Assembly (NCBI GenBank): GCA_963704755.1
Contig: OY969938.1
Span: forward strand, 4,080,001 to 4,112,000
Source of the DNA: an uncultured Chloroflexia bacterium
GTDB taxonomy: Bacteria; Chloroflexota; Anaerolineae; Anaerolineales; Anaerolineaceae
DNA length: 32,000 bases
Direction of reading: 5' to 3'
The notes beneath the pieces were generated by a model. The model did no database searches, had not been told where the DNA came from, and saw only the letters and a list, made by a program, of their open reading frames with translations. This document shows, piece by piece, positions 4,697 through 30,180 of this stretch. The position numbers were made by a program, and so were the translations under genes. Numbering within the stretch: the stretch's first letter is position 1; every line of letters starts with the position of its first letter.

Positions 4697-4800
4697 CTAA
4701 CCACTCAGGTTCGGGAGGGGTATGTTGGATGATTTTCGCGGGTTTCGCTTGCGAAAATCATCCAACATACCCTTTTTCTTAGGGATAGCTGAGTGGTTAC
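4697..4800. mobile_element. MITE-like nested-palindrome element, copy a (104 bp)
   Basis: Termini CTAACCACTCAGG / GCTGAGTGGTTAC. Central 21-bp perfect stem 4719-4739 / 4751-4771. Flanking 8-mers GATCTCCG (4689-4696) and GGTCTCCG (4801-4808) match 7/8. Confidence 0.8.
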
Positions 4801-4867
4801 GGTCTCCGTATTGTAAGCCTCACAACACGAAAAATCAAAAAATATTTCCCCGTGGATAATTAATGGT

Positions 4868-4981
4868 TTGACAGCTCAACCCAACGATTGAGAATCCCGT
4901 AATTGCGGTATTTACGTAGACTTCGCGTCCGCAAATACCCCCTAATTTCGGGTACTTATTAAAGTGATCCTGAGCAGTTAT
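4868..4981. mobile_element. Probable degenerate copy of the same element (a2)
   Basis: Right arm CCTGAGCAGTTAT (4969-4981) matches the family right arm 10/13. Left arm TTGACAGCTCAACC matches weakly. There is an imperfect inner palindrome CCCGTAATTGCGGTATTT .. AAATACCCCCTAATTTCGGG whose centre carries CTTCGCG. No recognisable TSD. Confidence 0.35.
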
Positions 4982-4994
4982 TTGGAAGAAAAAA

Positions 4995-6668
4995 TTATTG
5001 AAACAGCAGCCCGGCGATGGCCAGGATCAGCGCCACGATGCCGAATCCACCGGCTATCCAGAGCTGGTTCATTTGGAAAGATTGAACGGCAGCGAACAAG
5101 AAGGCCGCAAAGAAAATCGCCGTACCCAGGCGATGCGTGCTGCGCTCCAGGCGGGTGACCTGCGATTGTAGCTCCGGCATACGCACTTCCAGCCGGCCTC
5201 GTTCCAACTTGGAAAGCAGCGCTTCGGTGCGACGGGGCAGGCTGATCAATGCCTGGACGAACTTTCCAATGGAGGAAAGCGCTTTTTCGACCACCGGCCC
5301 GGCCTGGTCGGCTACCAGCTTACGGGCGTAAGGCACGATGCTCTGCCAGACGTTGAAATTCGGGTCCAGCCCGGTACAAATGCCGTTGAGGATGCTCAGA
5401 CAGCGACCCAGCAGAATGATATTGTCCGGCAACTGGAAGGGCATGTCGTAGAGCAGCCCGCGGAACTCGCCCACAAAGGCGGCCGCCTCGCGGGTGGAAA
5501 TGTTCATCAATTCGGGAGTGGTCTTGCCCCAGAAACGATCGAAGGCGGCCTGGTTGGCTTTGCGCAGCAGGTCCACGTCGGCGGTGGGAAGCAGCATCCC
5601 CATGGTCTGGTAGGCCTGGATGAGCTGGTCGGCGTCCTGGTTGGCCACCGCGATCAATCCCTGGCGCAGCCCGTCCAGCATGTTGGGGGTGATTTCACCG
5701 GCCATACCGAAATCGACGAAGACCAGTTTCCATCTGGCGGCCTGCCCATTCTCGTCCAGGTCTTCTGGCAGGACGAAAAGATTACCCGGATGCGGGTCGG
5801 CGTGGAAAAAATGGTCTTCGAATATTTGCTTGAGATAGACATCCAGCAGCCGCGAGGCCACTTCGGCCCGATCGATGCCATACGCCTCGATGGTAGCGTA
5901 GTCGGTAATCTTGATGGCCCGGATTTCTTCCAAAGTGAGCACGTGGCGGGTCGTGTGGCCCCAATATACGGCCGGTACGCGCACGCGGGGTTCATCGGCA
6001 AAGTTGGCGGCAAACGTCTCGGCGTTCTTCCCTTCATGGAGGTAATCCACTTCTTCCCACAGCGATCGGCTGAACTCGTTGAGCAACCCCTGCACGTTGA
6101 CGCGTTTGCGGATGGGCCGGTATAACTCCACCCAGCGGCTGACCACTTTTAGCGCGGCCAGGTCGGTCCGGATCAGCATTTCGATATCCGGGCGCTGTAC
6201 CTTGACCACTACTTCGCCCGGCCTTTCCACAAGCGGATCATCGTCACCGGCCGGGTCGAACAAATGAGCACGGTGGACCTGGCCAATGGACGCGGCGGCG
6301 ATGGGCTGAATTTCGAAGCCGGTAAAGTGCGTCTCGACCGGCCCGCCGAATTCCTGTTCGACCACTTTGCGAATATCGGCGAACAACTCCGGGCGAACTT
6401 CGTCTTGCAGACCGGAGAGCTCATCGGTAATTGCCTGGGGCAGCACGTCCAGGCGCGAGGAAAGCCATTGGCCGACCTTGATGAGCACACCCCCCAACTG
6501 AATGGCCAGCTCGCGGTAATTGGCAGCGACCCGGCGTAAGCGGTTCTCGCGGGTTCTTTTGGAGAGGCGCTGCAACCCGATGTGGGGCAAGAGAATATCC
6601 CACCAGGCCAGATGGATCAACACCCCGGCAAAAAACGTGATTATGCGTCGATAGCGGCTGCGTAACAT
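4995..6668 (-). CDS. ABC1/UbiB (AarF) family atypical protein kinase
   Basis: 557 aa. ABC1 signature LGGVLIKVGQWLSSRLDVLPQAITDELSGLQDEV, IAAASIGQVHRA, HADPHPGNLFV, DFGM. Two C-terminal TM helices. Confidence 0.9.
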   Translation of the reverse strand: MLRSRYRRIITFFAGVLIHLAWWDILLPHIGLQRLSKRTRENRLRRVAANYRELAIQLGGVLIKVGQWLSSRLDVLPQAITDELSGLQDEVRPELFADIRKVVEQEFGGPVETHFTGFEIQPIAAASIGQVHRAHLFDPAGDDDPLVERPGEVVVKVQRPDIEMLIRTDLAALKVVSRWVELYRPIRKRVNVQGLLNEFSRSLWEEVDYLHEGKNAETFAANFADEPRVRVPAVYWGHTTRHVLTLEEIRAIKITDYATIEAYGIDRAEVASRLLDVYLKQIFEDHFFHADPHPGNLFVLPEDLDENGQAARWKLVFVDFGMAGEITPNMLDGLRQGLIAVANQDADQLIQAYQTMGMLLPTADVDLLRKANQAAFDRFWGKTTPELMNISTREAAAFVGEFRGLLYDMPFQLPDNIILLGRCLSILNGICTGLDPNFNVWQSIVPYARKLVADQAGPVVEKALSSIGKFVQALISLPRRTEALLSKLERGRLEVRMPELQSQVTRLERSTHRLGTAIFFAAFLFAAVQSFQMNQLWIAGGFGIVALILAIAGLLFQ

Positions 6669-6749
6669 AATGAAACCAAGGCGTATTATATCATCCGCAC
6701 CGGGAGTATAATTTGTGCCTACCCAATCTTACAATTTTTTGAGAATTTT

Positions 6750-8096
6750 ATGTCTGTAAAAAAGAATATCGATAATATAACCACGGCTCCAACCGTGGGC
6801 AAGATATCACGCGTCCCCAATACTTTTCGCGCTTTACGGCACCCCAATTATCGTTTATGGTTTGGCGGCCAGACCGTGTCACTGGTGGGATCCTGGATGC
6901 AAACCATGGCCCAGCAAGTGCTGGTCTATGACCTGACCGGGTCGGCGGTGGCCTTGGGGATCGTCAATTTTGTCTATCTCATTCCGGTGATCCCGTTTTC
7001 ATTCTGGGGCGGCTCGATTGCCGACCGGTTCGACAAGCGCAAGGTCATTATTTTTACCCAGATCTGTTTTTCCATTCAGGCCTTAATTATGTGGGCGCTG
7101 ACGGCCACCGGCGTGGTGCAGGTCTGGCATGTTTATCTGCTTTCGTTTATGTTCGGCGTCATCGATGCGATCGACCTGCCGGTGCGCCAGGCATTTACCG
7201 TCGATATGGTCGAGGGCAAAGACGACTTAACCAATGCAATCGGCCTGAACTCGGCCATGTTCAACACGGCCCGGGTGGTGGGGCCGGCTCTGGCCGGGAT
7301 GGTGGTTGCGACGACCGGCGAAGCTAACGCCTTCCTGTGGAACTCGATCACCTTTGCGGCAGTGATCATCAGCCTGTTCTTCATGCGCAACCTGCCCAAG
7401 TCCTCGCACCAGCTTACCGAGAAAGGCCATGCGATTAAGCACATGTCGGAAGGGATGCACTTTGTCCTTTCGAACCGCACCATCACGGTGTTGATCAGCC
7501 TGGTCGCGGTTAGCGCATTTTTGTCGATGCCTTATAACACCCTCATGCCGGTCTTCGCCGAAAACATCCTCAACGGCAGTGCGACCCCGGTGATCAATTT
7601 CTTCTGCCGCTCGGGGAGCGGCATGCTCACCTGCCAGTCCCCGGAGGCGCTGCCCCTGGGCATTCTGCTGGCTGCGGTAGGGATCGGGGCGGTGATTTCG
7701 GCCCTGGTGGTGGCCTCGATGGACGAATCGGCCAGACGCGGGCGGATGCTGACTGTTGGCAATATCCTTTTCCCGGTGGTGTTGATCTTCTTTGCCTGGT
7801 CGAAATCTTTTGTTTTCTCGACCCTCGCGATGGTAGTGGTGGGCTTCAGCTTTGTGATGCAGAACGCCCTGGCCAACACCTTGCTGCAAATCGTCGCACC
7901 GGACGAGCTGCGCGGCCGGATCATGAGCTTTTATACCATGACCTTCCAGGTGACCATGCGCATGGGCGGCTTGCAGGCCGGCTACGTGGCCGACTGGCTA
8001 GGCGCTCCAATTTCGGTGGGGGTGGGGGCGATCGTATCGTTGTTCTACGGCGTTTTCGTCGCTTTCCGCTATCCCAAGGTGCGGAACCTAAAGTAA
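6750..8096 (+). CDS. MFS transporter (EntS / transmembrane-secretion-effector-like)
   Basis: 448 aa and highly hydrophobic, with about 12 predicted TM segments. N-terminal FRALRHPNYRLWFGGQTVSLVGSWMQ and loop GGSIADRFDKRKV are typical of this MFS subgroup. Confidence 0.85.
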   Translation: MSVKKNIDNITTAPTVGKISRVPNTFRALRHPNYRLWFGGQTVSLVGSWMQTMAQQVLVYDLTGSAVALGIVNFVYLIPVIPFSFWGGSIADRFDKRKVIIFTQICFSIQALIMWALTATGVVQVWHVYLLSFMFGVIDAIDLPVRQAFTVDMVEGKDDLTNAIGLNSAMFNTARVVGPALAGMVVATTGEANAFLWNSITFAAVIISLFFMRNLPKSSHQLTEKGHAIKHMSEGMHFVLSNRTITVLISLVAVSAFLSMPYNTLMPVFAENILNGSATPVINFFCRSGSGMLTCQSPEALPLGILLAAVGIGAVISALVVASMDESARRGRMLTVGNILFPVVLIFFAWSKSFVFSTLAMVVVGFSFVMQNALANTLLQIVAPDELRGRIMSFYTMTFQVTMRMGGLQAGYVADWLGAPISVGVGAIVSLFYGVFVAFRYPKVRNLK

Positions 8097-8102
8097 AAGA
8101 TC

Positions 8103-8213
8103 GTTGCTACTCAGGCCCATTCGGAAATCAGGGGTGTTTTTATTATTTTTCGCGTGCGAAGTACACGAAAAATAATAAAAACACCCCTCTTTTTGCGGTA
8201 GCTGAGTAGTTGC
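8103..8213. mobile_element. MITE-like nested-palindrome element, copy b (111 bp)
   Basis: Termini GTTGCTACTCAGG / GCTGAGTAGTTGC. Central stem 8131-8156 / 8164-8187. Perfect 8-bp direct repeats AAAAGATC at 8095-8102 and 8214-8221. The left TSD overlaps the MFS stop codon (8094-8096). Confidence 0.9.
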
Positions 8214-8440
8214 AAAAGATCTATATTTCCATTAGCATCGAACGTAGCGATGCCAGAAGGATCCTGATATTATTTGCCGGATCCACTGCCTACCGGATGA
8301 CCCTCCAGGCGTATTTAAGGTACGCATAACGCCCCTCTGAAACAGGCAATATGTCCATACAAAACCGGGCTAGCGGCTGTATCTTCTGCTAAAAAGAGCC
8401 CCTTGCAGGAACGGATTTTCGCTACCTGGTGTCCCACTAA

Positions 8441-9388: not shown

Positions 9389-9407
9389 AATTGAATCCCT
9401 TCGTAAT

Positions 9408-9428
9408 TTACGACATAAAGTGTCGTAA
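9408..9428. promoter_or_regulatory. Candidate operator in the divergent WYL-regulator / hydrolase promoter region
   Basis: 8-bp inverted repeat TTACGACA-taaag-TGTCGTAA, plus direct repeats TCGTAATT at 9401 and 9423. It lies between the start codons at 9388 (-) and 9475 (+). Confidence 0.3.
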
Positions 9429-9474
9429 TTCAAGTGTACAATTTGATTATCATTATGTAAAGGAGGTGATTTGA

Positions 9475-10347
9475 GTGGCTGAAAATAAAAATGTACCGGT
9501 CTTCATCCACAAGAGCGTCGTTGCCAAAGGTATTCCCATTCATGTTGTCGAAGCTGGCCAGGCAACGGAACCGGCAATCCTTTTTATTCATGGCTGGCCG
9601 ACAAATTGGCGGGAATTTTCACCTGTTATGCAGATGCTTTCCGATGAGTATCACGTAATTGCCGTTGATATCCCCGGCATCGGAGAATCAAAGGTCCCGG
9701 TTCAGTCCTATAGCAAGCAAAATATCGCAATCTATATCCTTGCGTTGATCGAGGCGATGAATTTAAGGGATGTCACCCTTGTTGGCTGCGATTGTGGCGG
9801 ACAAATCGTTTATGCCTGTTTAAAAATATCTCCAGACTGCGTTTCCCATGCCGTTATTATGAATGTTGTGATCCCAGGAGTAGAGCCGTGGAACGAGGTG
9901 AAGAACAATCCATACATATGGCATTTCAAATTCCATTTAGTGCCCGAATTACCTGAAAAACTGGTTTCTGGAAGAGAGCTTGAGTATTTTTCATATTTCT
10001 ATAATGTTCTGGCAGGTAAAGGAAATCGAATATCTGACGAGTATAGAGCCTGGTTTTCTCGAGCATACTCGAATTTGGACGCCTTGAAAGCCGGATTCGA
10101 TCTATATCGGTGTTTTCAAACAGACGAAAATGACAATATACAATTAAAAAACGTGCCTGTTCCAATGCCCGTTCTCTACCTGCGTGGAGGAGATGAGCCT
10201 GTTAATATTGAAACCTATGAGGAAGGCTTTAAGGAAAATGGCATCGAAAATATAGAAACAGCAATTATTGAGCATTGTGGACATTTTTCGGCCATAGAAC
10301 AGCCTGAAGAAGTCGCTTTAATGATCCGTAAATTTATAAAAAGGTAA
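9475..10347 (+). CDS. Alpha/beta-fold hydrolase (epoxide hydrolase / haloalkane dehalogenase-like)
   Basis: GTG start 8 nt after AGGAGGTGA. HGWP oxyanion motif (LFIHGWPTNW), nucleophile elbow GCDCGG, C-terminal HCGHF. The stop codon TAA (10345-10347) is supplied by the terminus of MITE copy c. Confidence 0.85.
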   Translation: MAENKNVPVFIHKSVVAKGIPIHVVEAGQATEPAILFIHGWPTNWREFSPVMQMLSDEYHVIAVDIPGIGESKVPVQSYSKQNIAIYILALIEAMNLRDVTLVGCDCGGQIVYACLKISPDCVSHAVIMNVVIPGVEPWNEVKNNPYIWHFKFHLVPELPEKLVSGRELEYFSYFYNVLAGKGNRISDEYRAWFSRAYSNLDALKAGFDLYRCFQTDENDNIQLKNVPVPMPVLYLRGGDEPVNIETYEEGFKENGIENIETAIIEHCGHFSAIEQPEEVALMIRKFIKR

Positions 10348-10454
10348 CTGCACAGCCCAGAGGGAAGAAACCCGAATTTGAGGTGTATTCGTGGGCTTCG
10401 CCCACGAATACACCTCAAATTCGGGGACTTTTTCACAGGGTCCTGAGTAGTTAC
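10344..10454. mobile_element. MITE-like nested-palindrome element, copy c (111 bp)
   Basis: Termini GTAACTGCACAGCC / CCTGAGTAGTTAC. Perfect 26-bp stem 10371-10396 / 10400-10425 with loop TTC. Perfect 8-bp direct repeats ATAAAAAG at 10336-10343 and 10455-10462. Confidence 0.9.
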
Positions 10455-10479
10455 ATAAAAAGTAAATAAGGAGACGAAT

Positions 10480-10983: not shown

Positions 10984-11145
10984 AATGTGGTTCGCCGCAT
11001 TTATATAACACGAATTTTCAATCGGACCTGGAGATGAGAGATGGGCGACAGAAACGCGCGTCGATCACCCATTTTTAGGATCGGTTGACCAAATTTCAGA
11101 ATCCAGCTTTGAAGGGTGGTCATACGCGAAATGTATTCTTTCCTG

Positions 11146-11255
11146 GTAACTGCTCAGACTGGTTAAGAAGTTGAGAGTGTTTTAAAGATTTTCGTGTGCG
11201 AAGCACACGAAAATCTTTAAAACACTCTCTTTCAATCGGATAGCTGAGTAGTAAC
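11146..11255. mobile_element. MITE-like nested-palindrome element, copy d (110 bp)
   Basis: Termini GTAACTGCTCAGAC / AGCTGAGTAGTAAC. Perfect 26-bp stem 11173-11198 / 11204-11229 with loop CGAAG. Flanking 8-mers CTTTCCTG (11138-11145) and CTATCCTG (11256-11263) match 7/8. Confidence 0.85.
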
Positions 11256-11407
11256 CTATCCTGTTCTTCCTTTGGATTTGTTCTCTGTTTGAGCCAGAAA
11301 AGGTAAAGGGATTTCCTGGATGAGCGCCGCTAATCCAATTCGGACCGGCGGTGCTTGCATTTAATACCACGTTGCAGTGTAAAATAGACGGGTTGAAGAG
11401 GTAATTC

Positions 11408-13294
11408 ATGAACATTCAAGGACCCTGGTTCAAAGACGATCAAGGCCGCACCTTGCTGCTGCGGGGTGTGAACCTGGGTGGCTCAAGCAAGATACCGGTC
11501 GTGCCGGATGGTGCTACTTACCAATCCGCGGGATTTTTCAATCACCGCCAGGTTTCGTTTGTCGGCCGGCCCTTCCCGCTGGCCGAAGCGGACGAACATT
11601 TCCGCAGGTTGAAATCCTGGGGGATGACTTTTTTGCGTTTTCTGGTCACCTGGGAGGCGATCGAACACGCCGGCCCGGGCCAGTACGATATGGAATACCT
11701 GGATTACGTTCACGCCATTTTGCGCAAGGCCAACGATTATGGCATTCAGGTATTTATCGACCCGCACCAGGACGTGTGGAGCCGTTTTTCGGGCGGCGAT
11801 GGGGCCCCGGGTTGGACGCTCGAGGCAGCCGGGTTCGATCTGCAACGTTTGAGCGAAACCGGCGCGGCGATTGTCCACCAGGTGCACGGCGATCCCTTCC
11901 CGCGTATGATCTGGCCGTCCAACAGCGCCAAGCTGGCCTCGTCGACCATGTTTACCCTGTTTTTTGCCGGCAATGATTTTGCCCCTGGGCGTACGCCGAT
12001 CGGCGTGCCGGGTGAATCGATCCAGGATTATCTCCAGCGCCATTACGTCCGGGCCATCCAGGTGCTGGCTGAACGCCTGAGTGACCTGCCCAACGTGATC
12101 GGCTACGATACGCTCAACGAGCCCCTGCCGGGTTATATCGGCTGGAAGGACGCCGCCAGGCGCGACGGGGTGCTGCAAACCGGCCCCAGCCCTACGCCTT
12201 ACCAATCCATGCTCCTGGGCAGCGGTTACCCACAGGTGGTGGATGTGATGGAGCGGCAGGTGTTTGGCATCCGCCGGGTGGGCCGTAAGCTGCTCAACCC
12301 GGGCGGGTTGAGCGCCTGGCAGGCGGGCAGTGCGTGTCCCTGGCGCGAGCAGGGCATCTGGGAAGTGGACAGCAGCGGAAAACCGTATTTAATCAAGCCG
12401 GAATATTTCAGGCGCATCGCCGGGCACGAAGTGAATTTCGAGAACGATTATTTGCGTCCATTTACCACCAAAGTAGCCGAGGCGGTCCATGCCATCCGGC
12501 CCGAAGCGCTGATTTTCCTGGAGGGGGAGGCCTTTCACGAACCCCCTTGTTGGGATCGCGAACAACGAGCACAAGTAGTGTTTACCCCGCACTGGTACGA
12601 TGCATACGTATTGTTTTTCAAGGCCTTCAGCCCCTGGCTGGGAGTGGATGTTCGTGGTGGTGGAAAACTGGTAGCCGGAGAGCAGGCCATCCGGCGTTCT
12701 TTCGCGTCCCAAATTGGCACGTTTAAGGAAATGTCGCGCAAATGCCTGGGGAACGCCCCGGTCTTTCTGGGAGAGTTTGGAACGCCCTTTGACCTGGATC
12801 ACAAACACGCTTACCACAATGGCGATTTCAGCCGCCAGGCGCAGGCTTTGAACCGTACTTTTCGGGCCTTGGAAGATAATCTGGTCAGCTACACCATCTG
12901 GAATTACAACCCCGATAACAACAACCGCCGCGGTGACCTGTGGAATGACGAGGACCTGTCGATCTTCAGCCGCGATCAGCAGCACGACCAGGGCAACATC
13001 AACTCAGGCGGCCGCGCACTGCAAAGCATCCTGCGGCCTTTCCCGCGCAGCACGGCCGGGGAGCCGCTCTTCCTGGAATTCGATTATCGCACAGGGCGAA
13101 TGGAATACCGTTTCCGGCACGCTCCGGCGATCGATGCACCCACCGAGTTCTATCTGCCGGCCCTGCAATATCCGCGTGGCTGCCGGGTGACGGTCAGCGA
13201 TGGGGATTATCGCCTGGACCTGGCCAATCAAACCATGACGTATCGTCATACTGACCGTTTGGCCGAGCATAAGATCGTTTTGCAAAGAATTTAG
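11408..13294 (+). CDS. Glycoside hydrolase family 5 protein (endoglycoceramidase/cellulase-like)
   Basis: 628 aa. LRGVNLGG.., FLRFLVTWEAIEH, VFIDPHQDVWSRFSGGDGAPGW, and the catalytic-acid motif GYDTLNEP. Confidence 0.8.
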   Translation: MNIQGPWFKDDQGRTLLLRGVNLGGSSKIPVVPDGATYQSAGFFNHRQVSFVGRPFPLAEADEHFRRLKSWGMTFLRFLVTWEAIEHAGPGQYDMEYLDYVHAILRKANDYGIQVFIDPHQDVWSRFSGGDGAPGWTLEAAGFDLQRLSETGAAIVHQVHGDPFPRMIWPSNSAKLASSTMFTLFFAGNDFAPGRTPIGVPGESIQDYLQRHYVRAIQVLAERLSDLPNVIGYDTLNEPLPGYIGWKDAARRDGVLQTGPSPTPYQSMLLGSGYPQVVDVMERQVFGIRRVGRKLLNPGGLSAWQAGSACPWREQGIWEVDSSGKPYLIKPEYFRRIAGHEVNFENDYLRPFTTKVAEAVHAIRPEALIFLEGEAFHEPPCWDREQRAQVVFTPHWYDAYVLFFKAFSPWLGVDVRGGGKLVAGEQAIRRSFASQIGTFKEMSRKCLGNAPVFLGEFGTPFDLDHKHAYHNGDFSRQAQALNRTFRALEDNLVSYTIWNYNPDNNNRRGDLWNDEDLSIFSRDQQHDQGNINSGGRALQSILRPFPRSTAGEPLFLEFDYRTGRMEYRFRHAPAIDAPTEFYLPALQYPRGCRVTVSDGDYRLDLANQTMTYRHTDRLAEHKIVLQRI

Positions 13295-13403
13295 GATCTA
13301 CTCAGCTGCTGGAAGAGAGAGGTGTGTTTCAATGTTTTTCGCGTGCGGAGCACACGAAAAACATTGAAACACACCTGATTTCCGTACTGGCCTGAGCCGG
13401 AAC
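13294..13403. mobile_element. MITE-like nested-palindrome element, copy e (about 110 bp, termini degenerate)
   Basis: Left arm GGATCTACTCAGC, right arm CCTGAGCCGGAAC. 26-bp stem 13320-13345 / 13351-13376 with one mismatch and loop CGGAG. Only a weak flanking repeat (GAATTTAG vs GAAATTTG). It starts at the last base of the GH5 stop codon. Confidence 0.7.
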
Positions 13404-14540: not shown

Positions 14541-14664
14541 CCGGTAAGCGCAAAGAATCCCCCCAGCCCCCCTTACGGAAAGGGGGTAAGAAAGCACAAC
14601 TCGATGGGGGGAGTTGCCCTTTGCCCCCCTTTTAAAAGGGGGACTGGGGGGATTCTTGAACCGG
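14541..14664. repeat. Complex nested palindrome rich in C6/G6 homopolymer runs
   Basis: Outer arms AAGAATCCCCCCAGCCCCCC (14553-14572) and GGGGGACTGGGGGGATTCTT (14638-14657) pair 19/20. Two inner hairpins share the same stem: CCCCCTT-ACGGA-AAGGGGG and CCCCCTTTTAAAAGGGGG. It lies between convergent genes. Confidence 0.7.
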
Positions 14665-18585: not shown

Positions 18586-18815
18586 GCCACGTTGGGGAAT
18601 AAGAAGATTACACCGCAGAGACGCGGAGAGCGCTGAGAAGATTATTTGAAAAGAGCCCGCAGGTTGGGTTCGGGCCTATCGAGGAAATTGGCCGGACATC
18701 GGGCGTTTGTCTGCCAGGAAATTGCCCGAACCCAACAAGTTCACATAGGTGAAAACCGATCTGCGGTATGGTAGCCCGGCTTTCGAAGCCGGCGCGTGCT
18801 ATCTTTAGAAAATTA

Positions 18816-18927
18816 GTAACCGCTCAGATAAGTGCGCAAAGAGAGGGTATTTTTATTATTTTTTGCGCGCAAAGCGCGCAAAAAATAATAAAAATACCCT
18901 AATCCTCTGCAGTAGTTGAGTAGTTTC
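18816..18927. mobile_element. MITE-like nested-palindrome element, copy f (112 bp)
   Basis: Termini GTAACCGCTCAGAT / AGTTGAGTAGTTTC. Perfect 27-bp stem 18844-18870 / 18874-18900 with loop AAA. Perfect 8-bp direct repeats GAAAATTA at 18808-18815 and 18928-18935. Confidence 0.9.
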
Positions 18928-18951
18928 GAAAATTACTAGAAAGAAGCTGGT

Positions 18952-20935: not shown

Positions 20936-22975
20936 ATGAAGAACGAATTTAATCTGGCTTTCAACGAAGTCATTGAGGAAAAACAACTACCCAAAGAGAT
21001 AATTCTCAAGGCTTTGGAATCAGCAATGGTTTCCGCCTACCGGCGGGCTGTCAATGCCTCAAACGCACAGCATGTTGAAGCCAAAGTGGATGTCGAGACG
21101 GGTAAGGTGACGGTTTATGCCGAGAAAGAAGTAGTCGATGCGGTCCAGGATGAGCGCACCGAGGTTTCTTTGGCAAATGCGCGTGTCGTTGAACCTGAAG
21201 CCGAGATGGGGGATATGGTTGTCGTCGAAAGTACCCCTCGCGATTTCGGCCGTGTAGCCGCACAGACTGCCCGGCAGGTTATCCAACAGCGCATCCGGGA
21301 TGCCGAGCGACAGGCTCAGCTCAACCATTATCAGAAACAGGTGGGCGAGATTGTCAGCGGCCTGGTTCAAGCGGTCAATGCCCAGGGTGTAACGGTCGGC
21401 CTGGAAATGAAAGCCGAAGGCGTTATGCCCCGTAAAGAAATGATACAGGGTGAACGGCCACGAATTCACGACCGGGTCCGCGCCCTGGTCGCCGAAGTTA
21501 AAGATAACCCGCGGGGTCCCCAGATTATTCTCTCCCGCACGCACCGCAATTTCTTGCGCCGCTTGCTGGAGAATGAAGTACCTGAAATTTATCACGGGGT
21601 CGTCGAGATTCGCTCTATTGCCCGCGAGCCGGGTGAGCGCGCCAAAGTGGCCGTTTCGGCTACCCAACAGGGTATCGATCCGGTCGGCGCTTGCGTAGGC
21701 ATTCGCGGCGTGCGCATCCAGGCCATTGTCAGGGAGCTGCACGACGAAAAGATCGACGTAATCGAATGGAACGCAGACACGGCCATATTTATTGCCAAAG
21801 CCATCAGTCCCGCCCGGGTGACCGGCGTTTATTTGAACGACCATTCCAGCGGCGGAAAGACGGCCACGGTGGTGGTGCCCGAAGACCAGCTCAGCCTGGC
21901 GATTGGGCGCGACGGGCAGAATGCCCGCCTGGCCGCCAAGCTGACCGGCTGGCGCATCGATATCAAGAGCCTGCCTGAAGCGGCCAGTGATGCCCTGAAC
22001 AAGCTGCAAAAAGAAGAAGTCATCCGTGAACTGGCTGCCCAGGAAACCGGGTCGATGCACCAGGTGGAAGAATTGCTGGCCCGTAAGGCCGAAGGCCGGC
22101 CTTTGCAGCCAGAAGAATACGACCAAATGTCTCGCTTCGTGGATCGGGTCGAACGGCGCATCAGTTCCAAGGTTGAAGAGACGAAAGTCGATGACAAGGC
22201 TCTCACCGAAGCTCGCGCCAAGGTTCCGGCAGACACCTTCGATGTCAGTATTTTGGACAGCGGGCTGCCCGAACACGTGGCCTATATTTTACAAGAAGCC
22301 GGCTTCAGCACCCTGGGTGAAATGGCCGTGCAGATGAAGCTCAACGCAGACGATATTTTGCGGTTGAACGGTATTGGACCGCGAGCCTTGCAGGAAATCG
22401 AAAGCCTCATGCAGTCCCTGGACGAGCGGGTAGCCGCGATGGCAGAAGCGAAAGCGGCCGCTCCGGTTGAGGCTGAAGCTCCTGCGGAAGTTACGGCCGA
22501 AACAACCGAAGCGCTCGAAACGGCGCCGGCTGAAGAAGCGGCTGAAATCGTTGCGGGTGAGGCCGAACAGGCTGCAGAAGTGCTCGAATCGCCGGCAGCC
22601 GGAGAGATCAGCGAAGAAACCTCACAGGCAGTTGGGGAACCTGAGTCTGTTGAGGAAGGTGTTGCGGAATTAAGCGAAGCACCTTCAGTCGAAGGGGAAG
22701 AGGAAGAGGAAGAAGAGGAAGAAGGCGAGGAAGAGGAAGAAGAGGCCGAAGAAGAAGGAAGTTTTGGAAAGTTATTCGAACTCCGGCCTGATGCGATCGG
22801 CGCAATTCCCTTCGAAGACGAAGAAGAAACGGATAGCACCGGTGCATCCAAAGATAAGAAAAAGTCGAAGAAGAAGAAAAAACATACCGAAGTTGAATTC
22901 GATCCCGATCGGGGCGAGGTAATCGTCCACAAGAAACACCGCCGCGATGGCGACGATTGGAATTGGGAATTATAG
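20936..22975 (+). CDS. nusA: Transcription termination/antitermination factor NusA with long acidic C-terminal extension
   Basis: NTD, S1 ([11 protein letters not shown]), KH1/KH2 ([40 protein letters not shown]) and an HhH-like region ([13 protein letters not shown]). These are followed by an Ala/Glu-rich tail of about 180 aa with a poly-E and a poly-K patch. Confidence 0.95.
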
Positions 22976-22999
22976 GGTTTAAATCAAAGAGAAAGAAAG

Positions 23000-23299: not shown

Positions 23300-23469
23300 A
23301 ATTCTCAGTCCCGTTCTTGGATAGAGCAAACCCTTGAAGGTTTAGTCGTATTGTCCCTTCAATTAGCTCAACCCACCATAAGGCGCTATCCCCGGCCAAT
23401 TCTTTTTCAAACATTGTCGCCAGGAAAGAATAGGGGATGCAGGGAGTAACATGGAAAGTGAGGTGAGAT

Positions 23470-25263: not shown

Positions 25264-25283
25264 GGTAGAACAGGGAAAGGTAC

Positions 25284-25694: not shown

Positions 25695-26658
25695 TGCGGA
25701 CTTATTGGCTCAAATCAAGGAACGCCTTGCAGCAGCCCAGAAGGTGCTCATTTCCACTCACGTGCGTCCCGATGGCGACGCGGTTGGCTCGATTCTCGGG
25801 CTCGGCCGGGCGTTAGCCCTGGCCGGGAAAACGGTCGGCATGGTCATGGCCGACCCGGTGCCAGGCAGTTTCCACCACCTGGCCGGTTTTAAGGATATAA
25901 AACAAAAGGCCAAGGGTGAATTCGATACCTACATCGTCGTCGATGCCGCTGATATCCAACGGATCGGTGGCGTATTTGGTGACCGGCAGCCAGATTTGCA
26001 ATTTGACCATCACATCACTAACCCGGGTTATGCTAAAATAAACTATGTAGATCCCGAGGCTGTAGCTACTGCCGCGTTACTGGCTGATGTTCTTGAACCG
26101 CTCGGTTTTACGATCGACAAGACTGCGGCCTGCGCATTATTGACCGGCATTATTACCGATACCATTGGTTTCCGCACTTCAAATATGACTCCACAGGCGC
26201 TAAGGTCTGCCGCCACGTTGATGGAAAAAGGCGCAGACTTGCCGGAACTTTACTACCAGGGACTGGTCCAAAGGTCATTTTCGGCTGCCCGATACTGGGG
26301 TACAGGGTTATCCTCTCTTCAGAAGAAAGATCGCATCATATGGGCAACCCTTACGCAGGCAGATCGTACCCTGGTCGGGTATAATGGCAATGATGATGCT
26401 GACCTGACCAATATGCTTTCGTCGATAACCGAAAGCGATATTGCTGTACTTTTTATCGAGCAAAAACAAGGACAGGTGAAAGTAAGCTGGCGAGCCCAGC
26501 CCGGTTTGGATATTTCGAAAATCGCGGTCGAGTTTGGCGGTGGTGGACATCCGGCTGCCGCCGGCGCAGATTTAGCGGGTTCACTTGAAGAAGTGCAAAC
26601 GCGGGTACTGGCTGCTACGGAGGCATATTTAAAAACGAATGGCTCTGAAACAAATTGA
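25678..26658 (+). CDS. nrnA: DHH/DHHA1 phosphoesterase (NrnA-type nanoRNase / pAp phosphatase)
   Basis: Start taken at ATG 25678 (MTARND..), overlapping the rbfA end by 17 nt. HVRPDGDAVGS, VVDAAD, FDHHITN, GGGGHPAAAG. Confidence 0.85.
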   Translation: MTARNDADLLAQIKERLAAAQKVLISTHVRPDGDAVGSILGLGRALALAGKTVGMVMADPVPGSFHHLAGFKDIKQKAKGEFDTYIVVDAADIQRIGGVFGDRQPDLQFDHHITNPGYAKINYVDPEAVATAALLADVLEPLGFTIDKTAACALLTGIITDTIGFRTSNMTPQALRSAATLMEKGADLPELYYQGLVQRSFSAARYWGTGLSSLQKKDRIIWATLTQADRTLVGYNGNDDADLTNMLSSITESDIAVLFIEQKQGQVKVSWRAQPGLDISKIAVEFGGGGHPAAAGADLAGSLEEVQTRVLAATEAYLKTNGSETN

Positions 26659-26709
26659 TCAATATCTAAACCATCGAGGGGAGATTTTTAGGCAAGGGGA
26701 TTATCACCG

Positions 26710-27615
26710 ATGAATAGCAATATTGACGTAAACAATGCCATTTCTGGCGTGCTGGTGGTGGATAAACCCGTTGGGCTCACTTCTCACGATGTGGTCCAGG
26801 TCATCCGCCGGGGGACGAATATTCGGCGTGCAGGCCATACCGGTACGTTGGATCCGCGGGCTTCAGGCGTGCTGGTGGTCCTGGTTGGTCCGGCTGTTCG
26901 TTTAAGTGAATACGTGTCGGCGTCGGATAAACGTTACCAGGCTGTGATCCAATTGGGGACAACCACCGACACCTACGACGCCGATGGTAAAATTCTGACT
27001 TCCCAGCCGGTAAATATCACCGAGCAGCAATTCGAGAACGCCTTACAGCAATTTATTGGTGAGATCGAGCAAGTACCTCCCCCCTATTCTGCCGTAAAGG
27101 TTCAGGGCCGTAAGGCTTACGAAATGGCCCGTGAGGGCGAAGTGGTTGATCTTTTACCGCGCAAAATTACCGTGTACAGCCTGGAGCTATTGGAATGGGC
27201 TCCCCCGGAGGCCGTCATCGACGTCTATTGTTCCTCGGGAACCTATATCCGCTCGCTGGCCAATGACCTGGGCAAGATGCTCGGCTGTGGCGCCCACCTG
27301 GTGGGTCTGCGACGTACCAAGAGCGGGCGGTTTACCTTGCGGGACGCCGTACCCCTGCGCAAACTGCGCGAAACCTTCGAGGATGGCTCCTGGTATCAGT
27401 TCTTGATCCCGGCGGCCGAAGCACTTTCGGACTGGCCCTCGATTGAATTGAGCGATGAACAGGTCGATTCGATCCGCCATGGCCACCGGATCCCGGCTGA
27501 ACCGGGAGTGGGCAAGTTGGCCAGAGGGATCAGTGACCAGGGAGAGCTGGTCGCCCTGCTCGAATTCAATCCGGCATCCAACGAATGGCAACCCAAAAAG
27601 GTCTTTTTCTCCTAA
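26710..27615 (+). CDS. truB: tRNA pseudouridine-55 synthase
   Basis: GVLVVDKPVGLTSHDVV, GHTGTLDPRASGVL (catalytic Asp), YSAVKVQGRKAYE, and a PUA-like C-terminus. Confidence 0.95.
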   Translation: MNSNIDVNNAISGVLVVDKPVGLTSHDVVQVIRRGTNIRRAGHTGTLDPRASGVLVVLVGPAVRLSEYVSASDKRYQAVIQLGTTTDTYDADGKILTSQPVNITEQQFENALQQFIGEIEQVPPPYSAVKVQGRKAYEMAREGEVVDLLPRKITVYSLELLEWAPPEAVIDVYCSSGTYIRSLANDLGKMLGCGAHLVGLRRTKSGRFTLRDAVPLRKLRETFEDGSWYQFLIPAAEALSDWPSIELSDEQVDSIRHGHRIPAEPGVGKLARGISDQGELVALLEFNPASNEWQPKKVFFS

Positions 27616-27640
27616 ATTCGCTTGCGGGTAGAAAATACGC

Positions 27641-27687
27641 AAAAAGGGTGTGCGTGCGGGCGTACGCCCATACACATACCCTTTTTT
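27641..27687. terminator. Terminator-like hairpin between truB and ribF
   Basis: A5, then a 17-bp stem 27646-27662 / 27665-27681 (13 Watson-Crick pairs, 2 G-T, 2 C-A), then T6. Confidence 0.55.
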
Positions 27688-27764
27688 AAACTTCGTTACG
27701 GAAATAGGGAATTTAACACAAATTATCCGGATAACCCATTTATTTAGAACGGGATTGTTCGCCC

Positions 27765-28694
27765 ATGCAGCATTTTTCTTCAATTGAAAACGTCCATTTG
27801 AATGGTACCTGGCTGTCGATTGGTGTATTCGATGGAGTCCATCGCGGGCACCAGACTATTTTGAAACAATTAGCCGTAGGCGCGCAGAAAGCCAACTGTA
27901 CCAGCACCGTAGTCACCTTCTTTCCCAACCCGGGTGTTGTGCTGGGGAAAATCGCAAAAGCTTATTATTTAACTGCCCCTGAACAGCGGGCAGAATTAAT
28001 CGGCGAGCAAGGGGTAGAAAACGTGATTACCGTGGAGTTTACCCGCGATTTATCCGCCCTTTCTGCCCAGGAGTTTATGCATTTGCTAAATCGGCACCTG
28101 GGGCTGCGCCATTTGATCGTAGGCGAGGACTTTGCCCTGGGCCACGGCCGTGAAGGAAACACAACCCGCCTGGCCGAAATCGGCAAGGAGATGGGCTACG
28201 ACCTGACCGTAATCTCGGCGGTTATCGAGAACGGTGAACGCATCTCTTCGACCAAGATCCGCAACCTGATCCAGGAAGGCCAGGTGAGGCAAGCCGCGGA
28301 AATGCTCGGGCGCTATTACAGCACGGCCGGTTCGGTCGATCATGGCGATGGACGGGGTAAGTCGTTGGGCTTCCCTACGGCTAACCTGAATTTTTGGAAA
28401 GAACAACTCCTGCCTCCTGCCGGAGTCTATGCCACCTGGGCCTGGTCCGGAAACGAGCGGTTTGCCTCTGTTTCGAACCTGGGCGTGCGGCCTACGTTCG
28501 ACCAACCCAATCCGCAGCCGCATTTGGAAGCGCACCTGCTCGATTTCGATCGTGACCTGTATGGAAAAACGGTCAGGCTGGAATTTGTCGAACGCATCCG
28601 CCCCGAAGTAAAATTTTCTTCAGTGGATGAGCTGGTTGCGCAGGTAAACCACGATAAAGGTACTGCCAGAGAGATACTCGGCCATGACGCCTGA
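27765..28694 (+). CDS. ribF: Bifunctional riboflavin kinase / FAD synthetase
   Basis: GVFDGVHRGHQ, ..FFPNP.., GEDFALGH, GRGKSLGFPTANL, and E..L.DFD.DLYG in the kinase domain. Confidence 0.95.
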   Translation: MQHFSSIENVHLNGTWLSIGVFDGVHRGHQTILKQLAVGAQKANCTSTVVTFFPNPGVVLGKIAKAYYLTAPEQRAELIGEQGVENVITVEFTRDLSALSAQEFMHLLNRHLGLRHLIVGEDFALGHGREGNTTRLAEIGKEMGYDLTVISAVIENGERISSTKIRNLIQEGQVRQAAEMLGRYYSTAGSVDHGDGRGKSLGFPTANLNFWKEQLLPPAGVYATWAWSGNERFASVSNLGVRPTFDQPNPQPHLEAHLLDFDRDLYGKTVRLEFVERIRPEVKFSSVDELVAQVNHDKGTAREILGHDA

Positions 28695-30111
28695 GCGGCA
28701 GGTCTATTTGCTCGACCCGAAACATCTTTCGCCGGAAACGATTGCGGTTACCTTTGCCAAGACCTCCCGCTCACCGGAGAGTTTCCGCGAGATCGCGGCC
28801 GGTTTGACCGATGAAAAGAGCGCAGAATTCCACGAGAAATGGGTGGTCGGGTACGGGCACGCATCGGTGGCCGAGCACGCGGTGCTGCATATTGCCGTAG
28901 AGAACCTGTCACGGTTGGCGGTCGAGACGCTCGAATCCTGCCGCCTGGCATCGTACACCGAAAAATCGACCCGCTATCAAAAATGGACGACTGAAGATTT
29001 CTTCCTGCCCGCCGAATTAGCCGGGCATCCCTTGCGCCAGGAATATATCGATACGGTCAGCCTGCTGTTCCGCAGTTATCAAGAGGCCCTTCCGGCCGTG
29101 CGGAGGGTGATCGAAAAAGCCTATCCGCAAAAAGCTGAGGAGAGCAGTTCTGCCTGGGAGCGGCGCATCCGCTCGCGCTACGTGGATATTTGCCGCTACT
29201 ATCTGCCGGCCGCTTCGTTGGCCAATGTAGGGATGACCATCAATGCGCGTGCCCTGGAGCATTCGATCTCCAAAATGCTCTCCCACCCCCTGGCGGAGGT
29301 GCGCGGGCTAGGCGCCGAACTGAAGCTGGTTGGCCAGGCTTGCGTACCCACCTTGATCAAATACGCGGAGCGGGTTCCTTACCTGGCTCAGGCCCGAGAG
29401 GCCTTGCAGTCGCTGGCAGTCGAACAGGCTGCCCTCCCTATTCAGGATGGCGAATTTTGCCGGCTGGTCTCTTTCGACGCCGACATCGAGGAACGGATTT
29501 TGGCGGCTGCCTATTACAGCCAGGCCGCTATCAGTTATCGCCAGGCCTGGGAGGAAATCCGGGCTTTGGGACCGTCAGCGCGCGAAGCCCTGGCGCAGGC
29601 GCTCTTTACCGGCCTGGGTAAATACGATATTCCCATGCGTGAATTAGAATATGGCAATTTCGTTTTCGATGTGGTTCTGGACCAGGGCGGCTATTTCGAG
29701 CTCAAACGCCACCGTATGATGACCCAGACCCCGCAGATGCTAACTACTCGCCTGGGATATGCCCTGCCGGGCGGGCTGGTCGCGGCAGGGCTGGAAGAGC
29801 ACTTCCGCGCAGCCATGCAAACCGCCGCGAACACTTACGAGCACCTGGCCGCCTGGGATCCGATTGTGGCGGCTTACGTCGTGCCGAATGCGTACAACCG
29901 CAGGGTGCTGTTACAGTTCAATTTGCGATCGGCCGATCACCTGCTCAGTTTGCGCAGTGCACCGAATGCACATTTCGCCCTACGCCGGGTCGTTCAATGC
30001 ATGGGGGAACAGATCCGGGCGGTATTGCCCACCCTGGGCGCATTTATCCGCACCAACCCGGACGAGACCTGGCAGAAGATCGAGCAAGAAAACTTCGCCC
30101 AGGTCAAATAA
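28684..30111 (+). CDS. thyX: Tandem-domain ThyX-like (Thy1 family, FAD-dependent thymidylate synthase-like) protein
   Basis: 475 aa with two ThyX-like halves. The N-half has HASVAEHAVLHI..SCRLASYTEKSTRY plus INARALEH. The C-half has FVFDVV..ELKRHRMMTQ plus FNLRSADHLLSLRS. The ATG overlaps the ribF end by 11 nt. Confidence 0.7.
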   Translation: MTPERQVYLLDPKHLSPETIAVTFAKTSRSPESFREIAAGLTDEKSAEFHEKWVVGYGHASVAEHAVLHIAVENLSRLAVETLESCRLASYTEKSTRYQKWTTEDFFLPAELAGHPLRQEYIDTVSLLFRSYQEALPAVRRVIEKAYPQKAEESSSAWERRIRSRYVDICRYYLPAASLANVGMTINARALEHSISKMLSHPLAEVRGLGAELKLVGQACVPTLIKYAERVPYLAQAREALQSLAVEQAALPIQDGEFCRLVSFDADIEERILAAAYYSQAAISYRQAWEEIRALGPSAREALAQALFTGLGKYDIPMRELEYGNFVFDVVLDQGGYFELKRHRMMTQTPQMLTTRLGYALPGGLVAAGLEEHFRAAMQTAANTYEHLAAWDPIVAAYVVPNAYNRRVLLQFNLRSADHLLSLRSAPNAHFALRRVVQCMGEQIRAVLPTLGAFIRTNPDETWQKIEQENFAQVK

Positions 30112-30120
30112 AAAGGATGT

Positions 30121-30170
30121 GTTACTACTCCGGTTAGTTCGGAAATTCGGGGTGTTAGTCGAGTAGTTAC
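30121..30170. mobile_element. MITE-like element, internally deleted copy i (50 bp)
   Basis: GTTACTACTCCGG..TTCGGAAATTCGGGGTGTTA / GTCGAGTAGTTAC. Both termini are kept, together with the left spacer and the first 8 nt of the central stem. Flanking 8-mers AAGGATGT (30113-30120) and AAAGATGT (30171-30178) match 7/8. Confidence 0.8.
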
Positions 30171-30180
30171 AAAGATGTTT

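Follow-up and report, generated by a model that had tools for sequence, protein, structure and literature searches.

Our analysis of the window, a stretch of 32,000 nucleotides of DNA taken as a whole, reveals eight copies of a non-coding element of about 110 bp, of which six are full, one is a 50-bp deletion derivative, and one is decayed. We are strongly confident that these elements are MITEs with the termini of the ISBst12 group, the single-ORF branch of the IS66 family. The explanation as a whole, in which non-autonomous MITEs have ISBst12-group recognition termini and a core maintained by arm copying, is in our judgement very likely. A preliminary description of this DNA had read the elements as MITEs, and that reading is upheld: their small size, lack of coding capacity, terminal inverted repeats, and exact 8-bp duplications all fit it, and are seen at scale elsewhere.

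The copies range from 50 to 114 bp in size, occur at a density of about one per 4 kb, and lie in all eight intervals in which such elements had been described. No ORF of at least 80 aa lies inside a copy; flanking ORFs touch the copy ends only. The elements and their flanking duplications, none of which is assigned a strand, are as follows.

4697..4800, 104 bp: copy 1, with termini CTAACCACTCAG / CTGAGTGGTTAC and core hairpin arms 4718-4739 and 4751-4772 (22 nt, 100%; fold z -11.3)
4689..4696 and 4801..4808: copy 1 duplication, left GATCTCCG, right GGTCTCCG (7/8)
4868..4981, 114 bp: decayed copy, with recognisable right terminus CTGAGCAGTTAT and a fold z of only -2.5
8103..8213, 111 bp: copy 2, with arms 8125-8155 and 8163-8193 (31 bp at 90% complementarity) and centre GAA (fold z -8.6)
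8095..8102 and 8214..8221: copy 2 duplication, both AAAAGATC (perfect, 8/8)
10344..10454, 111 bp: copy 3, with arms 10371-10396 and 10400-10425 (26 nt, 100%) and centre TTC (fold z -10.1)
10336..10343 and 10455..10462: copy 3 duplication, both ATAAAAAG (perfect)
11146..11255, 110 bp: copy 4, with arms 11173-11199 and 11203-11229 (27 nt, 100%) and centre GAA (fold z -10.9)
11138..11145 and 11256..11263: copy 4 duplication, left CTTTCCTG, right CTATCCTG (7/8)
13294..13403, 110 bp: copy 5, with arms 13320-13346 and 13350-13376 (27 bp at 96%) and centre GGA (fold z -7.5)
18816..18927, 112 bp: copy 6, with arms 18844-18870 and 18874-18900 (27 nt, 100%) and centre AAA (fold z -11.1)
18808..18815 and 18928..18935: copy 6 duplication, both GAAAATTA (perfect)
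30121..30170: 50-bp internal-deletion derivative, with both termini and the left spacer retained
30113..30120 and 30171..30178: derivative duplication, left AAGGATGT, right AAAGATGT (7/8)

The core hairpins in the window measure 22–27 bp apart from the longer, imperfect hairpin of copy 2, and are 100% complementary in four copies; in single-strand folding, the fold z-scores of the six full copies run from -7.5 to -11.3. The derivative has lost the palindromic core (the hairpin) and the right spacer, and matches the left 36 nt of copy 2 (8103-8138) at 78%. The decayed copy, which is similar to the CCCGAATTTGAGG subfamily, has an imperfect core (CCCGTAATTGCGGTATTT...AAATACCCCCTAATTTCGGG), a poor left terminus, and no duplication. 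Copy 5 likewise lacks a duplication, and its outer termini are degenerate (GGATC.../...GGAAC). Comparison of the cores among the window copies gives 64–84%, a considerable divergence, which suggests, from sequence comparison, that the activity of the element in this window may be ancient.

Several copies lie close to genes. The terminal GTAA of copy 3 provides the stop codon (10345-10347) of a hydrolase gene at 9475-10347. The likely ATG of a PIG-L gene is located 32 bp downstream of copy 1; convergent MFS and WYL genes flank copy 2; and convergent cofC and alpha-glucosidase genes flank copy 6.

The window copies have in common the termini GTAACTRCTCAG...CTGAGYAGTTAC. When as many as 2 mismatches are allowed, the 12-mer CTGAGTAGTTAC has 14 matches in the window, as compared with 0.63 expected, and none of 100 shuffled windows reaches that number. 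All 14 matches fall at element ends claimed in the preliminary description, which had ascribed terminal inverted repeats to all the copies; the repeats are confirmed for most copies, and are degenerate at the outer ends of 13294-13403 and poor at the left end of the copy at 4868. Its claim of 8-bp direct repeats flush with the element ends holds for six copies, with three perfect pairs and three 7/8 pairs.

The partner family is the ISBst12 group of the IS66 family, the single-ORF elements of which have GTAACTRYTCAG ends and 8-bp duplications. Ends and duplications of this type are present in about ten metagenomic elements, as well as in elements carried by Geobacillus pHTA426, by a plasmid of the Chloroflexota, and by one of Nostoc. 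In particular, ISGka4 on pHTA426 has ends GTAACTATTCAGCC and duplication GACGAGTT; the Nostoc plasmid element has ends GTAACTGCCYAG and duplication ATTTTACG; and the elements on plasmids of Ca. Chlorohelix, which establish that an ISBst12 partner exists within the Chloroflexota, have duplications TTCAATTT and AATTATTT. One of the two Ca. Chlorohelix plasmids (NZ_CP128402, L162) also carries a 165-bp MITE-like element. Transposition has been observed experimentally for ISDge4 (IS66 family, ISBst12 group), which has terminal inverted repeats GTGACTACTCAGCA / GTAACTGCTCAGCA and an 8-bp repeat (PMC12898284). The metagenomic elements encoding P0147, P0187, P0212, P0322, P0198, and P0290 have ends GTAACTGCTCAG(G/C)C or near variants, and five of the six have perfect 8-bp duplications, with none on the P0187 contigs. 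The missing flank match in several P0187-type elements on short metagenomic contigs probably reflects assembly chimerism. The left terminus of copy 4, GTAACTGCTCAG, has all 12 nt in common with the ends of the P0187, P0322, P0198, and P0290 elements.

ISBst12, ISGka4, and ISDge4 resemble the window elements in having 12–14-bp termini GTAACTRYTCAG(S)C, an 8-bp duplication, and hosts that include Chloroflexota. The termini of the window elements read GTAAC followed by TRYTCAG, and terminus positions 5–12 (CTRCTCAG) match all ISBst12-group elements examined and no classical IS66 element. The ISBst12-group elements differ in being 1.47–1.64 kb long with one DDE transposase of 450–505 aa, whereas the window elements are 50–114 bp long and non-coding. 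The interiors of the window elements show no relationship to subterminal DNA in the ISBst12-group insertion sequences examined, and simple deletion within the full-length elements examined does not account for the MITE interiors.

The window was described as free of transposase genes, and Pfam scans of all large ORFs agree, showing housekeeping genes only. A tblastn search with ISBst12-type transposases found no transposase or remnant in the window or in 119 MITE-bearing blocks from other genomes. Rfam 15 gave no match at gathering thresholds; its sub-threshold matches are eukaryotic microRNA hairpin models only, as expected of any long AT-rich hairpin. REP/BIME sequences, which are mobilised by the Y1 HUH transposase RAYT, are imperfect palindromes of 20–40 nt with no target duplication and with an associated RAYT gene. 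We rejected a REP/BIME assignment, since the elements are about 110 bp long with 8-bp duplications and no Y1 transposase is present among the window ORFs. Correia and RUP elements duplicate TA. To our knowledge, the element differs from REP/BIME, ERIC, Correia, BOX, and RUP in the defining features of each and belongs to none of them.

The same termini bound elements of about 95–125 bp in at least 119 genome blocks from many phyla (Chloroflexota, Desulfobacterota, Zeta- and Gammaproteobacteria, Elusimicrobia, Acidobacteria, Armatimonadota, and Fibrobacterota), with interiors that are unrelated from lineage to lineage. Flanking 8-bp duplications, which we sought in these other genomes, are found at scale: 71 of 151 elements have 8/8 matches and 25 have 7/8, and a control shifted by 10 nt yields no element scoring at least 7 of 8. 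The terminal columns are invariant, or almost so, across 27 aligned copies. The duplications have a GC content of 32%, as compared with 53.5% in the loci, and 76 of 79 classifiable insertions are intergenic. The gaps occupied (15 convergent, 16 divergent, and 45 co-directional) follow the abundance of such gaps, with no enrichment of convergent ones. The same gene pairs occur in relatives without the element; for example, in a relative with an 81% identical alpha-glucosidase, the convergent gene pair that flanks copy 6 is separated by a 12-bp gap without a MITE. The flanks have diverged too far for empty sites to be compared base by base, and we found no exact empty site; intergenic sequence could not be aligned in the only relatives.

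In the mechanism that we propose, a DDE transposase (DUF6444 + zf-IS66 + DDE_Tnp_IS66) encoded elsewhere would bind the 12–14-bp termini, GTAACTRCTCAG(S)C, and would join them to a target site cleaved with an 8-bp stagger; repair of the gaps would then leave the 8-bp direct repeat. The termini and duplication length are those of full-length ISBst12-group elements, and the targets are AT-rich and almost always intergenic. We infer that mobilisation occurs in trans, with a partner present now or formerly in this genome. The interior would be free to diverge between lineages. Within the core, one arm would be copied from the other, likely when the replication machinery switches template at a hairpin or cruciform, a process that would also invert the 3-nt centre.

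The variation of the core is the basis for this last part of the mechanism. In the Anaerolineae copies, the 19–28-bp core forms a perfect DNA palindrome with 3 nt at its centre, which are usually GAA/TTC. Covariation is present at 24 of 25 core pairs, with G-U in only about 8 of about 660 cells. In one subfamily, each of the 30 deviations from the consensus appears in mirrored form on both arms, with no one-armed case. With orientation set from the spacers, the centre is TTC in nine copies and GAA in six; a Brevefilum subfamily has AAA versus TTT centres; and inverted centres occur within one genome. The presence of the centre in both orientations points to arm-to-arm template switching, and, from the pattern of variation, it is rather likely that arm copying keeps the two core arms identical. 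A perfect core could instead result from selection, if only hairpin-intact copies keep transposing and the sampled copies descend from hairpin-perfect masters, a possibility that we consider somewhat unlikely. It is favoured by the conservation of the centre (GAA/TTC and other GNA-type triplets) and the closing C-G pair across subfamilies with different stems, which suggests that hairpin nucleation matters to the element, and by the decayed copy at 4868-4981, in which pairing has not been kept. However, single-copy substitutions are mirrored, whereas neutrally ageing insertions should show one-armed changes, and selection alone fails to explain inverted centres within one genome. Core selection and arm copying are compatible, and selection of this kind concerns the core only, not the identity of the element. 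A bolder proposal, which we consider improbable, is that the palindromic core is a functional single-strand DNA module rather than passive baggage, with the GNA-type centre nucleating hairpin extrusion and the hairpin aiding propagation; for example, the hairpin could join the two 12-bp termini for the transposase, or could prime fold-back synthesis that regenerates half of the core in each round. If so, the MITE would be copied by a mechanism unlike that of its parent insertion sequence, and would report, naturally and genome-wide, on template switching during replication in uncultured bacteria.

Three alternatives bear on the identity of the element itself. It is highly unlikely that the copies are host-selected structural modules, REP/BIME-like in role, that act as bidirectional intrinsic terminators or mRNA-stabilising hairpins and have terminal repeats only incidentally. 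Every window copy lies just past the 3′ end of a gene, three of four convergent gaps hold one, three window copies score as terminator-like, and the folds are extremely stable; but flush 8-bp duplications of unrelated sequence, together with identical termini on transposase-bearing insertion sequences, demand transposition. Moreover, convergent gaps are not enriched across the 79 insertions, in the largest subfamily no T-tract follows the stem, and pairing that is Watson-Crick only fits a DNA palindrome rather than selection at the RNA level. Individual copies may nevertheless have been exapted as terminators. Less probable again is mobilisation by a classical three-gene IS66 element (tnpA-tnpB-tnpC), the literal sense of the IS66-like partner predicted in the preliminary description. 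Classical IS66 elements (IS66, IS679, ISCro1, and ISEc8) are of the same DDE_Tnp_IS66 superfamily, make 8-bp duplications, and start with GTAA (ISCro1 end GTAAGCGTCAACGG; L124 GTAAGCGTGTCCGC, with duplication CTAAAAAC; L121 GTAAGCGCCAAATA). Their termini, however, go on with GCG... rather than CTRCTCAG, so that GTAAGCG stands against GTAACTR in the MITEs with the first four bases alone in common, and they have three genes, including accessory tnpA and tnpB. The predicted partner family exists, as the single-ORF ISBst12 group rather than as classical IS66. The least probable alternative is another transposon family with 8-bp duplications (ISL3, IS1595, IS256, IS6, ISAs1, or hAT-like). The duplication alone does not tell these families apart, but their termini start with GG, CAGGG, or similar, rather than GTAAC; a family with exactly matching 12–14-bp termini, the ISBst12 group, has already been found; and no transposase of another IS family is linked to the termini in any locus.

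The quasipalindrome-correction (Ripley) model holds that, where a repeat forms a hairpin, a change in one of its arms is transferred to the other and its centre may become inverted; these predictions fit the mirrored deviations and flipped centres of the Anaerolineae core. Work in E. coli by Lovett and by Sinden reportedly deals with laboratory strains and with mutational hotspots at individual loci; the evidence here, in contrast, is standing variation in uncultured Anaerolineae, over dozens of copies of a mobile element. Known bacterial MITEs (Correia, RUP, ERIC, MITEPsy1, MITEAba12, Chunjie, and Nezha) are small and non-coding, with terminal inverted repeats, target duplications, stable predicted folds, a preference for AT-rich or intergenic sites, and dependence on an IS transposase (PMC3184786; PMC3189936). 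The window elements share these general traits and differ in termini and duplication length, the duplication being 4 nt in MITEPsy1 (PMC3189936) and 9 bp in Chunjie (PMC3184786). No attribution of these named MITEs to the IS66 family appears in the literature searched. Nezha is a cyanobacterial MITE tied to ISNpu3; because a Nostoc plasmid carries an ISBst12-group element with GTAACTGCCYAG ends, it is possible that the window elements are related to, or identical with, Nezha. The bacterial MITE literature examined describes no core that is at once perfect, mirrored in its substitutions, and flipped at its centre, and this palindrome of the Anaerolineae copies, with its jointly changing arms, is the one new feature.

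The findings name a transposase family for very abundant small repeats of the Anaerolineae and, with different interiors, of at least eight other bacterial lineages. These repeats break metagenomic assemblies and are at present unannotated; the 12-mer pair provides a simple search key for annotating them. Single insertions alter genes, as in the hydrolase stop codon at 10345-10347. One 12-bp sequence is reused across phyla, mobilising unrelated DNA, which points to the ISBst12 group as a broad generator of MITEs. With dozens of natural replicates of a perfect palindrome in the Anaerolineae core, one can count the mirrored substitutions and the flipped centres, so that the long-standing template-switch model of palindrome evolution becomes testable outside laboratory E. 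coli.

Direct inspection of the window confirmed that each of the eight intervals named in the preliminary description contains what was described for it:

4697–4800, full-length copy of the MITE
4868–4981, decayed relative with one recognisable terminus
8103–8213, full-length copy, hairpin of 31 bp at 90% complementarity
10344–10454, full-length copy
11146–11255, full-length copy
13294–13403, full-length copy with decayed outer termini and no direct repeat, hairpin of 27 bp at 96% complementarity
18816–18927, full-length copy
30121–30170, 50-bp derivative retaining both termini and the left spacer, hairpin gone

The six full-length copies (104–112 bp) share a single common layout. In particular, each carries inverted repeats of 12 bp at its ends (GTAACTRCTCAG / CTGAGYAGTTAC) and spacers of 13–17 nt on either side of a central hairpin of 22–27 bp, which is 100% complementary in four of the six; single-strand folding z-scores for these copies range from −7.5 to −11.3. 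Searching both strands of the window for the 12-mer CTGAGTAGTTAC with ≤2 mismatches gave 14 matches versus 0.63 expected, a number reached in 0 of 100 shuffles of the window, and all 14 are claimed element ends. The 8-bp boundary duplications proposed earlier are likewise borne out: perfect direct repeats abut the termini in three cases (AAAAGATC, ATAAAAAG, and GAAAATTA), and three further pairs match at 7 of 8 positions. The loss of the core in the 50-bp derivative is a deletion of the type provoked by palindromes. The window copies have diverged from one another and may therefore be old.

The window is ordinary chromosome, with genes for LytR, an ECF sigma factor, a PIG-L deacetylase, an ABC1 kinase, an MFS transporter, a WYL regulator, a hydrolase, a glyoxalase, a GH5 enzyme, a SpoIIE phosphatase, an alpha-glucosidase, a thioredoxin-like protein, and a pyrophosphatase, together with the F420 genes cofD and cofC, a nusA-ylxR-infB-rbfA-nrnA-truB-ribF cluster, and thyX. 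No transposase of any kind is among these genes, and the absence of a transposase claimed from the sequence alone holds both in the gene scan and in tblastn with the relevant transposases; no tRNA gene or Rfam family match was found in the window. All copies are intergenic and lie beyond gene 3′ ends. The copy at 10344 is inserted in the final codons of the hydrolase gene, with the terminal GTAA of the MITE providing the present stop codon (10336–10347, ...ATA AAA AGG TAA). Subtraction of the element and one 8-mer (10336–10347, 10455–10470) yields ...ATA AAA AGT AAA TAA (...TTTATAAAAAGTAAATAAGG...), restoring IKSK followed by a stop, and the insertion thus changed the C-terminus from IKSK to IKR. 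Judged by the names of protein homologues, the host is an Anaerolineaceae-like Chloroflexota bacterium, and its contig measures 4.87 Mb. The host's closest relative in the protein collection has only 81% identity in alpha-glucosidase; two orthologous gene pairs in relatives are without the element, with flanks too diverged to align.

Several other features of the window were recorded. The segment 8100–11260, which carries the WYL-domain regulator, alpha/beta hydrolase, and glyoxalase-family genes, is low in GC (41–45% versus 55–60% around it), has the copies at 8103 and 11146 at its two ends, and contains a third copy at 10344; it may be acquired DNA that drew AT-preferring insertions. A distinct palindromic element rich in C/G runs (AAGAATCCCCCCAGCCCCCCTTACGG...) and without GTAAC termini occupies 14553–14657, where the SpoIIE phosphatase gene and a gene for an F420-type oxidoreductase converge, with arms of 37 nt that are 81% complementary. 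Between cofC and the copy at 18816, positions 18600–18800 hold a short inverted repeat (GTTGGGTTCGGGC ... GCCCGAACCCAAC) around a direct repeat of CAATTTCCT, and a GC hairpin (GCCGGCTTCGAAAGCCGGGC); the corresponding gap in a relative (L164) is 12 bp and has none of these repeats. Adjoining the 50-bp derivative, in the convergent gap between thyX and the thioredoxin-like gene, is a 29-nt inverted repeat (30168–30235, 83% complementary) that is probably a bidirectional terminator and has weak, sub-threshold matches to microRNA models. The C-terminal half of NusA (20936–22975, 679 aa) includes a long acidic stretch, coded by GAA/GAG-rich 9-nt periodic repeats (22701–22879), and ThyX (28684–30111, 475 aa) has two Thy1-domain stretches and about twice the usual length, and appears to be a tandem-domain form.

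The same termini occur in other genomes. A scan of one genome per species for GTAACYRCTCAG followed by 70–100 nt and CTGAGYRGTWAC, in which near-perfect termini were demanded at both ends so that counts and host range are lower bounds, returned at least 119 blocks. The matches listed come from many Anaerolineae and other Chloroflexota, Desulfobacterota, Zetaproteobacteria, several orders of Gammaproteobacteria, Elusimicrobia, Acidobacteria, Armatimonadota, and Fibrobacterota; elements of different lineages share nothing but their termini, and their interiors are unrelated. A relaxed detector produced a catalogue of 154 elements, with both flanks present for 151, of which 71 have perfect 8-bp duplications and 25 have duplications matching at 7 of 8 positions; control 8-mers offset by 10 nt never reached ≥7 matches. 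The GC content of the duplications is 32%, versus 53.5% in the same loci, and 76 of 79 insertions classifiable with crude longest-ORF gene calls are intergenic. Single genomes hold near-identical copies with differing duplications, indicating recent amplification there. In a gammaproteobacterial MAG (L060, 5827–6834), a 1008-bp non-coding unit lies between MITE termini with a perfect duplication, GTATTTTT, encloses a further MITE nested at the right end, and is adjoined by another complete MITE, indicating that the termini can mobilise larger passenger DNA. A 121-bp proteobacterial variant had no BLAST match among plasmids.

Two sets of loci have other architectures. In a Desulfosarcinaceae MAG, identical 106-bp elements (L002, L006, L084, and L118) are always followed by AGTTCGAGATAG and have no duplications, and the terminus pair there seems to be a portion of a longer repeat unit. 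In L026, L032, L038, L041, L064, L069, and L071, from Desulfobacterales, Elusimicrobia, and a proteobacterial MAG, the interiors consist of inverted short tandem motifs (GGCTGAA, CAGAATT, and GTGAACC), an architecture unlike the Anaerolineae palindrome.

The position of all window copies past gene 3′ ends, and the terminator-like scores of three of them, would fit host-selected terminators, but this reading is not supported by the wider data: insertions fall in 15 convergent, 16 divergent, and 45 co-directional gaps, tracking gap numbers with no convergent enrichment, and a T-tract is missing from the largest subfamily. The individual flush duplications exclude three further readings: REP/RAYT elements, integron attC sites, and a composite transposon extending over the low-GC 8.1–11.3 kb segment. 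Specifically, an attC site is at odds with a direct duplication proper to each copy and with neighbours that are housekeeping genes, and a composite transposon is at odds with its mismatched outer flanks (AAAAGATC versus CTATCCTG).

For MITEs moved by a transposase, the best match is the ISBst12 group, the single-ORF branch of the IS66 family. The preliminary description had predicted an IS66-like partner from GTAA ends and 8-bp duplications; the family was right, and the exact match is narrower, to this branch. Classical three-gene IS66 elements (ISCro1 on an E. coli plasmid and two faecal virome elements) end in GTAAGCG, unlike the MITEs; one of them, a faecal virome element with compared flanks (L124), has a perfect 8-bp duplication. 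No other family with 8-bp duplications is known to have matching termini. DDE-type transposition is established for the IS66 family, and an ISBst12-group member is active, moving in a manner that the authors call copy-and-paste (PMC12898284). ISDge4 of Deinococcus geothermalis, in the ISBst12 group, has a single 449-aa transposase and an 8-bp direct repeat; its terminal inverted repeats are GTGACTACTCAGCA and GTAACTGCTCAGCA, and its transposition has been caught (PMC12898284; copy data in PMC8369957). Further elements are as follows.

ISBst12-group elements: source; size; termini; duplication
ISGka4-family, Geobacillus pHTA426; 1635 bp; GTATCTATTCAGCC / GTAACTATTCAGCC; GACGAGTT
Metagenomic, six transposase clusters; 1548–1598 bp; GTAACTGCTCAG(G/C)C or near variants; ATAAAAAG, CTTTTGTT, ATCTATCG, ACCCTTTC, GAGAGATG, AACTTTTG
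Ca. Chlorohelix allophototropha plasmids (Chloroflexota); 1504 bp; GTAACAATTCAGCC / GTAACAGTTCAGAC; TTCAATTT and AATTATTT
Nostoc sp. UHCC 0870 plasmid (L163, 19885–21361); 1477 bp; GTAACTGCCCAGGT / GTAACTGCCTAGCT; ATTTTACG

One metagenomic contig has an IS and a 139-bp MITE-like element together, and of the two Ca. Chlorohelix plasmids one (L162) carries a MITE-like element of 165 bp, whose termini are related and whose duplication matches 7/8. The ISGka4 transposase has thousands of homologues; among the matches listed, every one has DDE_Tnp_IS66 and nearly all have zf-IS66 and DUF6444. The best 120 matches of a profile search include no Chloroflexota-named ISBst12-type transposase, and the Chloroflexota case came from the plasmid collection. 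The Nostoc element has repeats of GTTTCAGTCCCCTTGCGGGGTAATAGGCTTTGGAAAC on both sides and cas1 and cas2 ~16 kb away, and was thus apparently inserted in a CRISPR array.

No full-length, autonomous element was found in the at least 119 MITE-bearing blocks. Specifically, terminus pairs 300–6000 bp apart with matching flanks enclose only housekeeping genes or the L060 1008-bp composite; solo termini are decayed MITEs; all-against-all BLAST of block ORFs revealed no repeated transposase; and neither ISCro1 TnpC (phmmer) nor ISBst12-type transposases (tblastn) gave a match in the window or blocks. The MITEs themselves display the terminal sequence, the duplication length, AT-rich intergenic targets, and no coding capacity. 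We propose that an ISBst12-group transposase, acting in trans, would bind the 12–14-bp termini and insert them at an 8-bp staggered cut, now or in the past.

Of the catalogued elements, 39 have a perfect-stem core with a 3-nt centre; all of these are from Chloroflexota, most of them from Anaerolineae, and their stems are 16–28 bp long, versus never more than 7 bp in shuffled interiors. GAA/TTC centres occur in 23 and GCA/TGC centres in 6, and three of the 39 have a centre of 4 or 9 nt. When 27 copies, drawn from the window and ten other genomes, were aligned, 24 of 25 core pairs had changes on both sides, and 94.9% of cells of the tested structure were paired, versus 67% in shuffled controls and 35–49% with partners slid. 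G-U occurs in only ~8 of ~660 core cells, and this Watson-Crick-only pairing fits a DNA palindrome, not selection on an RNA helix. The conserved GNA-type centre and closing C-G pair suggest that easy hairpin nucleation matters.

In a subfamily of 16 copies with 6 arm haplotypes from two lake genomes, each of the 30 deviations from consensus, including private substitutions of single copies, has its mirror image on the opposite arm, with no one-armed change. With orientation set by the non-palindromic spacers (alignment scores 24–34 versus ≤4), 9 copies have a TTC centre and 6 a GAA centre, and one genome contains both; in a Brevefilum subfamily the centres are AAA versus TTT. The best explanation for the mirrored private substitutions together with the flipped centres is that one arm was copied from the other. 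From these patterns of variation, the copying likely happens when replication switches template at an extruded cruciform or hairpin; the quasipalindrome-correction model describes template switching of this kind.

MITEs linked to an IS family are well known as a class. The literature searched assigned no MITE to the IS66 family or the ISBst12 group, and contained no instance of the 12-mer terminus in a relevant context. Nezha, a cyanobacterial MITE, has been linked to ISNpu3 (PMC3184786) and may be a named relative, because cyanobacteria carry ISBst12-group elements. Two features are out of the ordinary: the reuse of a single 12-bp terminus across phyla with unrelated interiors, and the concerted evolution of the arms, with flipped centres, in the Anaerolineae core.
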